NCBI RefSeq assembly: GCF_913774845.1 | Contig: NZ_CAJYJO010000055.1 | Reading direction: 5' to 3' (one strand) | Origin: an uncultured Microbacterium sp. | GTDB taxonomy: Bacteria; Actinomycetota; Actinomycetes; Actinomycetales; Microbacteriaceae | DNA length: 64,000 nucleotides | Shown: positions 10,265 through 59,968 of the stretch, in pieces | Layout of the letters: each line of letters starts with the position of its first letter | Position numbering within the stretch: the first letter of the stretch is position 1 | The notes under the pieces: model-generated | Databases searched by the model: none | Told to the model about the DNA's origin: nothing | The model's input: the letters and a program-made list of their open reading frames with translations, nothing else | Program-made: the position numbers and the translations under genes

Positions 10265-10335
10265 CGGTCCAGCCTAGGCGGCGGACCCCCGGCGGTCACG
10301 GGGGAGGGGACAGACGCGGGAGCTCTCGAAGGGGA

Positions 10336-10450
10336 GGTCCCTGAGCTCGTCGAAGGCTCCGGTGGCTCAGACGGGCTCAGCCACCACGGCGAAGGGACGG
10401 GGACTTCGGCAAGCCCAGCCACCACGTCGAAGGGGCGGGGCCCAGCCACC
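10336..10450. repeat. Cluster of 25-nt palindromic repeat copies (REP-like)
   Basis: GGTCCCTGAGCTCGTCGAAGG (10336), GGTGGCTCAGACGGGCTCAGCCACC (10361) and two degenerate copies ending in CAGCCACC. Confidence 0.75.
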
Positions 10451-18679: not shown

Positions 18680-18866
18680 GGACACGCATCGATCCGGCCA
18701 TCACCGGGGAGCTCGCGGAAGAACAGGGTCCAGGCCCCCAGTAGAACCGCGCGGGGCAGGCCCGTCACAGCCGCAGTGAGAGCGGCACCGGCCCCTGAGT
18801 TCGTCGACGGGTCCCGTGCAATGCAGGGTGGTACCGCGGTCCGCATGGATCGTCCCGGCGAGAGAA
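18680..18866 (+). promoter_or_regulatory. Ile T-box riboswitch (actinobacterial translational type)
   Basis: Stem I sequence GATCCGGCCATCACCGGGGAGC with the ATC (Ile) specifier at 18700-18702; T-box GCAGGGTGGTACCGCG at about 18823-18838; directly upstream of ileS. Confidence 0.88.
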
Positions 18867-18885: not shown

Positions 18886-21800
18886 ATGACCTACCCACGC
18901 CCCTCATCCTTCGGCCCGGCCGCCGACGCGCAGAGCGCCGCCGTCGCGGCATCCGTCGTCCCGAGCCCTCGCTTCCCGTCGATCGAGAACGACACGCTCG
19001 CGTTCTGGAAGGACGACGACACCTTCCGCGCCTCCATCGCGAACCGCGAGGGCGCCGAGGAGTGGGTGTTCTACGACGGCCCGCCCTTCGCGAACGGCCT
19101 GCCGCACTACGGGCACCTCCTCACCGGGTACGCCAAGGACGTCTTCCCGCGCTTCCAGACGATGCGCGGCAAGAAGGTCGACCGCGTCTTCGGCTGGGAC
19201 ACGCACGGCCTTCCCGCCGAGCTCGAGGCGATGAAGCAGCTCGGCATCACCGAGAAGGACGAGATCGAGCGCATGGGCGTCGCGACCTTCAACGCGAAGG
19301 CCCGCGAGTCGGTGCTCGAGTACACGCGCGAGTGGCAGGACTACGTCACGCGCCAGGCCCGCTGGGTCGACTTCGAGCGCGGCTACAAGACGCTGGACAC
19401 GACGTACATGGAGAGCGTCCTGTGGGCGTTCAAGACGCTGCACGACAAGGGTCTCGCGTACGAGGGCTACCGCGTGCTGCCCTACTGCTGGCGTGACGAG
19501 ACGCCGCTGTCGACGCACGAGCTGCGCATGGACGACGACGTCTACAAGATGCGCCAGGACCCCTCGGTCACGGTCACCTTCCCGCTGGTGGGCGCCAAGG
19601 CCGAGTCGCTCGGCCTCACCGGCGTCCGCGCCCTGGCCTGGACGACGACGCCGTGGACCCTGCCGACGAACCTCGCGCTCGCGGTGGGTCCCGGCATCCG
19701 GTACGCGGTGGTCGAGGGCGGCCCGAACGGCGCGGCCGACGTGCACACGACCCCCGACGGCACGCCCGACGAGGCGTTCGAGGCCGTCGCGCACCGGTAC
19801 CTGCTGGCCGAGGACCTGCTTGCGAACTACGCCAAGGACCTCGGGTACGACAGCGCGGATGCCGCCCGCGCGGCCGTGCAGACGACGATCTCGGGCGCGG
19901 AGCTCGAGGGCGTCGCGTACGACCGGCTGTTCGACTATTACGCCGACGCCGACACGTGGGGAACCGAGAACGCGTGGAAGATCCTCGTCGACGACTACGT
20001 CACGGTCTCGGACGGCACCGGCATCGTGCACCAGGCCCCCGCGTACGGTGAAGACGACAAGCGCCTCGCGGATGCCGCGGGCCTTCCCACGATCATCTCG
20101 CTCGACGACGGCGGACGGTTCCTGTCAGCCGTGACCGACGTCGCGGGCGAGCTGTGGCTCGAGGCGAACCGTCCGCTGATCCGTCTGCTCAAGCAGGGCG
20201 GGCGTCTCTTGCGCGAGGCGTCGTACGAGCACTCGTACCCGCACTGCTGGCGCTGCCGGAACCCCCTCATCTACAAGGCCGTGTCGAGCTGGTTCGTGCG
20301 CGTGACCGACATCAAGGACGACCTGCTGGCGAACAACCAGCAGATCACCTGGGTGCCCGAGAACGTCAAGGAGGGCCAGTTCGGCAAGTGGCTCGAGGGC
20401 GCGCGTGACTGGTCGATCAGCCGCAACCGCTACTGGGGCTCGCCGATCCCGGTGTGGAAGAGCGACGACCCGAACTTCCCGCGCGTCGACGTGTACGGCT
20501 CGCTCGCCGAGATGGAGGCCGACTTCGGCCGCCTGCCGGTGAACGCCGACGGCGAGGTCGACCTGCACCGTCCCTACATCGACGGCCTCACGCGCCCGAA
20601 CCCCGACGACCCGACCGGGCAGTCGACGATGCGCCGCATCGAGGACGTCCTCGACGTGTGGTTCGACTCGGGCTCGATGCCGTTCGCGCAGGTGCACTAC
20701 CCCTTCGAGAACCACGAGTGGTTCGACGAGCACGCCCCCGCCGACTTCATCGTCGAGTACATCGGGCAGACGCGCGGCTGGTTCTACGTCATGCACGTGC
20801 TCTCGACCGCGCTGTTCGACCGCCCCGCCTACACGGGCGTGTCGTGCCACGGCATCGTGCTCGGCAACGACGGGCAGAAGATGTCGAAGTCGCTGCGCAA
20901 CTACCCCGACGTGCGCGAGGTGTTCGACCGCGACGGTTCGGATGCCATGCGGTGGTTCCTCATGTCGTCGAGCGTCCTGCGCGGTGGCAACCTCGTCGTG
21001 ACCGAGGAGGGCATCCGCTCGGGCGTCCGCGAGTTCCTGCTGCCGCTGTGGAACGCGTGGTACTTCTTCGCGACGTACGCGAACGCTTCAGCGCCGGTGG
21101 CTGAGTCCGTCGAAGCCTCCGGCCCCGGGCTCGAGGGGGTTTCGGTCCCTTCGACGGGCTCAGGGACCTCGGTCGCAGGCCCAGGGACCTCGGTCGGCGG
21201 GTATGAAGCTCAGTGGCGCACCGACTCCACCGACGTGCTCGACCGCTACATCCTCGCGCTCACCGGCGACCTCGTGCGCGATGTCGCTTCCGACCTCGAG
21301 GGCCTGGACTCGACGACCGCGGCCGAGCGTCTGCGCGACTTCGCCGAGGTGCTGACCAACTGGTACATCCGCCGCTCACGCGACCGCTTCTGGGTGGGCG
21401 TGACCGACGACCCGTCCAGCCGCCAGGCCTTCGACACGCTCTACACGGTGCTCGAGACGCTCACCCGCGTGGCCGCTCCGCTGCTGCCGCTGGTGACCGA
21501 GCGCGTATGGCAGGGGCTGACCGGCGGGCGGAGCGTCCACCTGACCGACTGGCCCGACGCCGCGGCGTTCCCCGCCGCCGAAGACATCCGCACCGCGATG
21601 GACACCGTGCGCGAGGTCTCGAGCGTCGCCAACGCCCTGCGCAAGCGCGAGGGCAAGCGTGTGCGCCTGCCGCTGCCGCGTCTGACGGTGGTGACCCCGG
21701 ATGCCGCGGGCCTGGCGCAGTTCGACGACATCCTGCGCGAGGAGCTCAACGTCAAGGCCGTCGAGCAGGTCGCCCTCGAAGACGGCACAGCGGGGGAGTA

Positions 21801-22383
21801 CGGGATCACCCACCGCCTCTCCGTGAACGCCCGCGCCGCGGGTCCGCGCCTGGGCAAGCAGGTGCAGCAGGCCATCAAGGCTGCGCGTGAGGGCGCCTGG
21901 AGCGAGGTCGACGGACAGGTCGTCGCCGGCGGCATCCCGCTCGAACCTGCGGAGTACGACCTCGTCGTCGAGACCGCGGGTCGACCCGAGGGAGAGGCTC
22001 TTGCGGTGCTGTCCAGCGGCGGCTTCGTGCTGCTCGACACCGTCACCACCCCCGAGCTCGAGGCCGAGGGTCTGGCGCGCGACATGATCCGCGGCATCCA
22101 GGACACCCGTAAGGCCGCCGGCTTCGACGTGAGCGACCGGATCGCCCTCACCCTCACGTTCGACGACGCCGGTGACGCCGCGGCCGTGGCTCAGGCGTTC
22201 GACGTGGCGGGCGTGGCATCCGAGACCCTCGCCGAGAGCGTCGTGCTCGCGAGCCGCACCGAGCGACTCATCGAGCGCGGGAACGTCGGGGCGCCGCAGT
22301 TCGAGAACGTCCTCATCGCCAGGACCTATGCGAACGTCGGTGCCGTCACGGTGGCCGTGGCGCGGATCGGAGCCCCCGCATGA
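18886..22383 (+). CDS. ileS: Isoleucine--tRNA ligase
   Basis: [24 protein letters not shown] and KMSKS; carries an in-frame repeat-derived insert at about 21091-21195. Confidence 0.97.
21096..21195. repeat. Two inverted copies of the 25-nt palindrome plus a partial duplicate inside ileS
   Basis: GGTGGCTGAGTCCGTCGAAGCCTCC (21096-21120), GGTCCCTTCGACGGGCTCAGGGACC (21144-21168), and CAGGGACCTCGGTC duplicated. Confidence 0.85.
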
Positions 22384-58108: not shown

Positions 58109-59968
58109 ATGTCACCGCGCGCCCTGAAGCCCCTCGAGCCGTCTGCCACTCCGCCGGAGCAGATCCGCAACTTCTGCATCATCGCCCACATCGACCACGG
58201 CAAGTCGACGCTGGCCGATCGCATGCTGCAGATCACCGGCGTCGTCAGCGATCGCGACATGCGCGCGCAGTACCTCGACCGCATGGACATCGAGCGAGAG
58301 CGCGGCATCACGATCAAGTCGCAGGCCGTGCGGATGCCGTGGTCCCTTCGACAGGCGCAGGGACCCGAGCAGACCTTCGCGCTCAACATGATCGACACCC
58401 CCGGCCACGTCGACTTCACCTACGAGGTCAGCCGCTCACTCGCCGCGTGCGAGGGCGCGATCCTCCTCGTCGACGCGGCGCAGGGCATCGAGGCCCAGAC
58501 GCTCGCCAACCTCTACCTGGCGCTCGAGAACGATCTGACCATCATCCCGGTGCTCAACAAGATCGATCTGCCCGCGGCCGACCCCGACAAGTACGCGGCC
58601 GAACTCGCCGGTCTCATCGGCGGCGACCCCGCCGACGTGCTGCGCGTCAGCGGCAAGACGGGCATGGGCGTCGAAGACCTGCTCGACCTGATCGTCGAGA
58701 AGATCCCCGCCCCGGTCGGAAGGGCCGACGCCCCCGCCCGCGCGATGATCTTCGACTCGGTCTACGACGCCTACCGCGGGGTCGTCACCTACGTCCGCAT
58801 GATCGACGGCTCGCTGCAGCCGCGCGAGCGCCTGCAGATGATGTCGACGGGCGCGACGCACGAGGCGCTCGAGATCGGCGTGTCGAGCCCCGAGCCCGTG
58901 CCCACCAAGGGGCTCGGCGTCGGCGAGGTCGGCTACCTCATCACGGGCGTGAAAGACGTGCGCCAGTCGAAGGTCGGCGACACGATCACGACGCACCGCA
59001 AGCCCGCCACCGACGCCCTTCCCGGCTACACCGACCCGAAGCCGATGGTCTTCTCGGGCATCTACCCGATCGACGGCAGCGACTACGCCGAGCTGCGCGA
59101 AGCGCTCGACAAGCTCAAGCTCTCCGACGCCTCGCTGCAGTACGAGCCCGAGACCTCCGTCGCCCTGGGCTTCGGCTTCCGCTGCGGCTTCCTCGGGCTC
59201 CTGCACCTCGAGATCATCACCGAGCGCCTCTCGCGCGAGTTCGGGCTCGACCTCATCACCACGGCGCCGTCGGTGACCTACGAGGTCACCACCGACACCG
59301 GCGACACCGTCTCGGTCACCAACCCCAGCGAGTACCCCGACGGGCGCGTCGCCTCGGTGTCGGAGCCGATCGTCAAGGTCGGCATCCTGCTGCCGAAGGA
59401 CTACGTGGGCACCGTCATGGAGCTCTGCCAGTCGCGCCGCGGCACCCTGCTGGGCATGGAGTACCTCAGCGAGGACCGCGTCGAGCTGCGCTACCACATG
59501 CCGCTCGGCGAGATCGTGTTCGACTTCTTCGACCACCTCAAGTCCCGCACGCAGGGCTACGCGAGCCTCGACTACGAACCCGCCGGGCAGCAGACCGCCG
59601 ACCTCGTCAAGGTCGACATCCTGCTGCAGGGCGACAAGGTCGACGCGTTCAGCTCGATCGTGCACCGCGAGAAGGCGTACGCCTACGGCACGCTGATGGC
59701 CGAGCGCCTGCGCAAGCTCATCCCGCGCCAGCAGTTCGAGGTTCCCATCCAGGCCGCGATCGGCGCGCGCATCATCGCGCGCGAGACCATCCGCGCCATC
59801 CGCAAAGACGTGCTCGCCAAGTGCTATGGCGGTGACATCACCCGCAAGCGCAAGCTCCTCGAGAAGCAGAAAGAGGGCAAAAAGCGCATGAAGATGGTGG
59901 GCCGCGTCGAGGTCCCGCAGGAGGCGTTCATCGCCGCCCTGTCCGGAGACGTCGAGACCAAGAAGTAA
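58109..59968 (+). CDS. lepA: Translation elongation factor 4 (LepA)
   Basis: [29 protein letters not shown] and [14 protein letters not shown]. Confidence 0.98.
58341..58365 (+). repeat. 25-nt palindrome in frame within lepA
   Basis: GGTCCCT-TCGACAGGCGC-AGGGACC encodes (W)SLRQAQGP. Confidence 0.8.

Follow-up and report, generated by a model that had tools for sequence, protein, structure and literature searches.

In E. coli, BIMEs are mosaics of alternating REP types, which are extragenic and associated with RAYT. Palindromic repeats within coding DNA are known from Rickettsia, where the RPEs are inserted in frame and where RPE-7 is listed in the isoleucyl-tRNA synthetase gene (PMC3767692; background in PMC3733652). 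Likewise, intragenic REPs of the GTAG and CGTC superfamilies have been catalogued in several bacteria, their intragenic dimers often encoding 20-30 aa (Di Nocera et al. 2013, PMC3733652), and the CGTC REPs, which are without a dedicated transposase, have a stem of 8-9 bp and a loop of 4-5 nt (PMC3733652). The latter survey mentions Actinobacteria, Microbacterium and Clavibacter 0 times each, and a literature search, both by the core text and by REP combined with Actinobacteria or Microbacteriaceae, found no paper describing the Microbacterium hairpin family considered here.

The locus in question is the ileS gene of a Microbacterium genome, for which the original prediction had proposed a repeat-derived in-frame insertion of about 35 aa by analogy with Rickettsia, a precedent that is indeed established, the RPE-7 listing being in ileS itself. 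Very probably, an A-spacer-B dimer of a transposase-less, REP/BIME-like family specific to Microbacterium entered this gene and has since been inherited as a nearly neutral in-frame passenger. Below we set out the evidence for this reading, together with the other explanations that bear on it.

The ileS gene and its repeat-derived insert

The source genome (G000) is a 55-contig draft of 3.37 Mb, 99.99% complete, and the window, that is, the whole stretch of 64,000 nt analysed here, corresponds to G000:C55:43645-107644, with a GC content of 70%. The contig bearing the ileS insert is 180 kb long and the insert sits in its middle. The features of the window relevant to the insert and its repeats are as follows.

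18886..22383, plus strand: ileS, encoding isoleucyl-tRNA synthetase (1165 aa), the sole full-length IleS of the genome
21091..21198, plus strand: repeat-derived in-frame insert of 36 codons (A736-G771), between ...TYANAS and GYEAQW
21096..21120, plus strand: type A hairpin copy, 2 mismatches (23/25) to the consensus, read as VAESVEAS
21121..21143, plus strand: A-to-B spacer of 23 nt, its ends matching the flank consensus of genomic A-to-B dimers (CCGG.CCCC ... GGGGG)
21144..21168, plus strand: type B hairpin copy, 25/25 to the consensus, read as VPSTGSGT
21157..21196, plus strand: 21-nt (7-codon) tandem (TRF: 1.9 copies, 94% matches), the B 3' half and tail being duplicated
10334..10450, strand not given: cluster of four full or decayed family copies

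The host protein aligns with T. thermophilus IleRS 1ILE at E 1e-52 (phmmer) and contains both the HIGH motif, as HYGH, and KMSKS, as befits a class Ia IleRS. Its homologues have the domains PF00133, PF08264 and PF19302, the names of its best matches assign the genome to Microbacterium, and the gene is single-copy in G000, the remaining matches being class I paralogues at no more than 63 bits.

The in-frame insertion that had been predicted is real: it is built of repeats, its reading frame is open throughout, and it ends at 21198 rather than at 21195, comprising 36 codons as against the claimed 35 aa or so. Relative to the nearest empty alleles, which read ANAS-GPD-GYE, the net gain is 99 nt (33 codons, 33 aa) and not 36 aa, because the native GPD tripeptide is replaced by the insert. 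The two oppositely oriented palindrome copies are likewise found, A at 21096-21120 and B at 21144-21168, with an inverted repeat (21096-21115 against 21149-21168) that is 85% complementary. The same holds for the duplicated sequence: within the 21-nt tandem are the only two occurrences of CAGGGACCTCGGTC in the window, which start at 21161 and 21182, against an expectation of 0. Given these A and B copies, their start-to-start distance of 48 nt and the fit of the spacer ends to genomic dimers, the insert is, as read from its DNA, one canonical A-spacer-B dimer followed by a duplicated B-tail. Its residues are G, S, V, P, A, E and T with one L only, a linker-like composition. The RNA fold of the insert, at -60.7 kcal/mol, is not more stable than that of shuffles (z = -1.09), so that evidence for a selected mRNA structure is absent.

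The alignment with 1ILE breaks off after residue 663 (...YANLDRPD) and resumes at residue 675 (MDRWLL). The insert falls in this gap, which would have it replace the loop that connects the first two helices downstream of KMSKS; by this alignment the site is an inter-helix loop where the anticodon-binding domain begins. The AlphaFold2 model, made with 40 close homologues and poor in confidence, has a helix at 707-733, a coil at 734-783 and a second helix at 784-806, with pLDDT <50 there and a mean of 51.5, and so adds little. The insert may lie in a surface loop, is probably disordered and would be translated; translation, disorder and tolerance we infer from the conservation of the frame across species.

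The leader of ileS also carries a degenerate B-minus-like repeat copy (18790..18815, plus strand), which on reading the sequence lies just 5' of a T-box-like GGGTGGTACCGCGG. The GGGTGGTACCGCGG region may be an atypical actinobacterial ileS T-box; an Rfam search of the leader (18790-18839) gave no T-box match even at E<=1. The only Rfam matches in the window are three tRNAs, none falling on the insert, on the ileS leader or on the repeats.

The hairpin family in the genome and in other genes

A BLAST comparison of the insert with the whole of G000 gives more than 200 matches. The family comprises a type A hairpin with the consensus GGTGGCT-GAGCCCGTCGA-AGCCACC and a type B hairpin with the consensus GGTCCCT-TCGACGGGCTC-AGGGACC, the loop of which may also be written TCGACRGGCTC. 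Each is 25 nt long, with an 11-nt loop on a 7-bp stem; A and B have different stems, and their loops are reverse complements of one another. At up to 3 mismatches G000 contains about 77 copies of A and 102 of B, in 65 clusters, and at up to 1 mismatch 69 copies of B. In 27 instances a B copy follows an A copy in the same relative orientation, 25-50 nt separating their starts, and each of the opposite arrangements occurs once, and the A-to-B spacing in clusters is about 40-43 nt. It is this layout, shared with the 27 genomic dimers, together with the perfect match of the B copy to the family consensus, that bears out the predicted repeat origin of the ileS insert.

Most copies in G000 lie downstream of genes (75 between tandem genes, 45 between convergent and 8 between divergent ones), a REP-like arrangement of the kind described in PMC3733652, by counts from a crude GC3-based gene caller that covers 64% of the genome and makes the intergenic classes approximate; several copies scored within ORFs near their 5' ends probably reflect over-extended ORFs. 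In the genus, the B pattern at up to 1 mismatch is found in 43 of 151 sampled genomes, at 0-121 copies each, the reversed B pattern used as a control giving 0 in all 151. Exact B copies in the species-representative collection belong mostly to named Microbacterium species; a small number come from Planctomonas and Aeromicrobium, and others from MAGs assigned to different phyla. The MAGs concerned are labelled Vicinamibacteria, Lachnospiraceae, Chloroflexi, Bacteroidales and Lewinella (loci L061, L071, L083, L100, L123, L125 and L131), and these hairpins most likely represent mis-binned Microbacterium-like contigs. Neither G000 nor any of five repeat-rich congeners has the Y1/RAYT transposase (PF01797), for which control genomes were positive, and the aligned empty and filled alleles have no visible target-site duplication at the junctions of the IleS insert.

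In-frame copies were sought in long, high-GC3 ORFs of G000, the genes being named via Pfam. The following genes carry them.

C2:40745-44791, minus strand: KdpB-like P-type ATPase, inserts at two sites, one of about 86 aa; G016 and G019 are without the latter, G009 has a shorter form
C20:34494-35792, plus strand: citrate synthase, 32 aa; absent in 5/5 relatives including G009 (93-97% identity)
C22:10669-12288, minus strand: GcvT, about 70 aa; absent in 4/5 relatives, present in G009
C30:110811-113519, minus strand: TreY-like enzyme, in-frame segment of the same repeats
58341..58365 of the window, plus strand: LepA, single B-type copy read as SLRQAQGP, 5 aa more than in G125, G016, G009 and G002

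ScpA also bears copies, upstream of its conserved domain. At the LepA site, five residues are present in four of the five relatives compared. In G257 the insert at this position of LepA is longer and its core runs in the opposite sense (IPELVEG), which looks like a flipped loop or the entry of a second copy.

The phases in which the repeats are read are unevenly used. Four of six genes use the phase giving VAEPVEAT, VPSTGSGT, VPEPVEGT or VASTGSAT, and two of six that giving LRQAQG; the first phase, which has a TGA in two of four orientations and otherwise yields FDRLRD-type peptides, is used by none of the six. The 21-nt tail tandem CAGGGACCTCGGTNGCGGGC occurs at four loci only, all of them in ORF contexts:

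C2:41566-41700: KdpB
C22:11442-11540: GcvT
C38:18457-18640: N-terminal region of ScpA
C55:64805-64845: IleS

This distribution suggests that CAGGGACCTCGGTNGCGGGC is a subfamily spreading or expanding only where a 7-codon period is tolerated.

Orthologues and the recurrently occupied IleS loop

The original prediction had left room for two readings under which the insert would lose its meaning, namely a same-length segment in orthologues and an artefact of assembly. The first does not apply to the 29 IleS orthologues compared (24 from the genus, 5 from other families within the order), the segment being absent from 29 of 29, with three residues (GPD) in its place. The closest two of this set, G009 and G016, at 94-95% identity, have contiguous DNA flanks around the tripeptide. 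A 120-aa query reaching across the empty site was matched by 248 genomes in an evenly drawn sample of the genus, and in 10 of these 248 Microbacterium genomes, G000 included, the alignment is split at the site by a long insert. The insert of G000 has orthologues with the same junctions in two other species, G125 and G257, and the three have in common the left junction GCTTCG/GCGCCGGTGGCTGAG, a mutated A arm (AGCCTCC) and the start of the spacer. Since the insert is present in three species with the same junctions, it predates their divergence. The metagenome contigs searched did not contain the exact left junction.

The second reading, in which a repeat copy has been wrongly collapsed into the ileS contig, might draw on the draft state of the genome with its 55 contigs. 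However, the same junctions and shared derived mutations recur in the assemblies of two other species, from which it follows that the insert is no such artefact; moreover, the 99 nt are in frame in the middle of a 180-kb contig, and assemblies from NCBI, JGI and Logan have independent insertions of their own at this site. A misassembly is accordingly a most implausible account.

The three carriers differ by a 21-nt duplication in G000, an 18-nt duplication in G125 and a loss of 42-48 nt in G257, so that every later length change among them is a multiple of three. The loss in G257 removed the B copy, which is decayed in G125 and of perfect consensus in G000, and the 21-nt tandem of G000 is absent from the orthologous insert of G125. 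Across the carriers the insert evolves faster than its IleS flanks, which in G000, G125, G257 and G009 have about 90-91% nucleotide identity. The branching of these four on the IleS tree has UFboot values of 70-89 with conflicting site patterns. The simplest reading of these sequences is one gain with G009 outside the carriers, and a single gain is likely; alternatively, the empty allele of G009 may have arisen by loss.

The course of events under the preferred reading, that of a passively inherited dimer, would then be as follows. One dimer unit (A hairpin, spacer, B hairpin) would have entered the ileS coding sequence at the loop that links helices one and two of the anticodon-binding domain, in an ancestor shared by at least three of the species sampled, with template switching or recombination with another copy as candidate routes and replication slippage for the tandem part. 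Because its length is a multiple of three and one phase is free of stops, the unit would be read through as a segment rich in Gly, Ser, Pro, Val, Thr, Ala and Glu, and, the segment being tolerated by IleS, it would be inherited as a nearly neutral passenger. Later change would have come only by in-frame slippage and decay (the 21-nt and 18-nt duplications and the loss of B in G257). Comparison of the sequences establishes the repeat origin, the lineage specificity, the orthology in three species and the conservation of the frame, and the alignment establishes the inter-helix position; neutrality and the mechanism of insertion, like the selfishness that the original prediction ascribed to the repeat, we infer.

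A B hairpin that is perfect in G000 yet decayed in G125 may point to homogenisation by other copies or to some constraint on the hairpin, rather than to drift alone. The inserted peptide, or the hairpin in the mRNA or DNA, could be functional and selected, for example as a new interaction surface or as a translational pause where the catalytic domain meets the anticodon-binding domain. In favour of this, the insert has persisted without a frameshift over about 9-10% nucleotide divergence, its B hairpin is perfect in G000, and many lineages carry something at the same loop. Against this stand the faster evolution of the insert than of its flanks, the large indels among carriers with the B hairpin lost in G257, the close relatives that do without it, the inserts of other lineages that are unrelated in sequence and orientation, an RNA fold at the level of shuffles and the composition of a flexible linker. 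On balance we regard a selected function as very improbable.

The loop occupied by the dimer carries inserts in other lineages of the genus too. Among the best 120 IleS homologues, a ranking that favours insert-like sequences and is to that extent a biased sample, many Microbacterium proteins have extra residues at the same loop, and the DNA read at the individual loci contains at least three unrelated repeat forms at this ileS codon.

Form 1, in G000, G125 and G257: A+/B+ dimer
Form 2: core in the other sense, as single B copies (GGPSTGSGT) or as 24-/21-nt tandem arrays
Form 3, in G086 (L179) and a JGI metagenome contig (L031:2577-2774): a different hairpin with the core GTCGTTGAGCGAGCGCAGCGAGACGAAAC, read as PVVERAQRDET

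The tandem units of form 2 are reverse-A derivatives (STGSAGSA and the like). Such arrays are present in G064, G114, G249, G260 and G070 and differ among the five, which are separated on the IleS tree by short-loop relatives; nevertheless all five begin with the identical junction AA(C/T)GCTTCGACA(G/A)GCTCAGC, in which the native GCTTCG leads straight over into the core of the repeat. The native empty site AACGCTTCGGGCCCCGACGG (AAC GCT TCG ... GAC GG) has CTTCG and GACGG in common with the repeat core CTTCGACGGGCTC.

One question then is whether the recurrent occupation reflects insertion directed by the sequence of the site, rather than merely the survival of insertions in a permissive loop. 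With CTTCG and GACGG common to site and core, template switching or recombination would start here repeatedly. The identical left junction of different arrays in five lineages separated on the tree, the occupation of one codon by B singles, by the A+B dimer and by an unrelated family of hairpins, the failure to find a transposase candidate and the two different forms at one site of LepA all point in this direction. The same pattern is, however, predicted by one ancient copy decaying or expanding in situ, and equally by interspecies recombination of ileS segments; the comparison extends to just one further gene site, and a microhomology of 5-6 nt in a genome of 70% GC is weak alone. We hold sequence-directed insertion to be a tentative possibility, and rather doubtful. 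As for the more specific proposal that one ileS codon, and possibly one lepA codon, is a sequence-directed landing site for transposase-less hairpins, we consider it unlikely. Were it true, a microhomology or template-switch mechanism would write hairpins into coding DNA and then amplify them by 21/24-nt steps.

Relation to described repeat systems

Whatever the route of entry, the findings have several consequences. Palindromes in coding DNA extend beyond reduced intracellular genomes: in a free-living, high-GC genus a hairpin family repeatedly adds peptide segments to essential enzymes (IleS and LepA) and to further housekeeping enzymes (KdpB, GcvT and citrate synthase). The many independent alleles at the one IleS loop, which range from empty through a single hairpin and a dimer to tandem arrays, offer a natural series in which to study RAYT-less movement and how much insertion an aminoacyl-tRNA synthetase tolerates. 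For annotation, the repeats explain low-complexity STGSG, VAEPVEA and LRQAQG segments in Microbacterium proteins, and spurious ORFs.

Among the described classes, MITEs (70-300 bp, with terminal inverted repeats and a target-site duplication) do not fit, the duplication being absent from the junctions and the units being 25-nt hairpins. A REP/RAYT system is approached in that the family consists of many short imperfect palindromes, mostly extragenic and downstream of genes (by crude gene calls) and clustered in alternating orientation; an assignment to it fails on the absence of both the GTAG/CGTC tag and the Y1 (RAYT) gene. As in the GTAG and CGTC REPs, the elements are short stem-loops located mostly downstream of genes, with oppositely oriented dimers and an intragenic minority, and as in the CGTC REPs a dedicated transposase is absent. 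They differ from both superfamilies in that the flank consensus has no tag at the stem end, CGTC occurring only inside the loop of some copies, and from the CGTC REPs in having a 7-bp stem and an 11-nt loop. Similarly, they resemble the BIMEs of E. coli in that hairpins of two subtypes take turns within a cluster and keep a fixed orientation to each other, but RAYT is absent here and copies are also intragenic. We describe the family as working like REP and RPE elements and do not place it among them.

The likeness to the RPEs is one of working: a dispersed, hairpin-forming palindromic repeat is inserted in frame in housekeeping genes including ileS, keeps the ORF and is inherited across species. 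Judged by unit size and host, membership in RPE-1 to RPE-10 is unlikely, the units here being 25-nt hairpins arranged as dimers and short tandems as against RPE elements of 100-150 bp (>90 nt), and the host being a free-living high-GC actinobacterium as against a reduced intracellular alphaproteobacterium. What these findings add is the multi-allelic hotspot at one IleS loop, where a single ileS codon is used by several repeat forms, together with in-frame amplification in 21/24-nt tandems and genome-wide in-frame insertions in a free-living high-GC genus.
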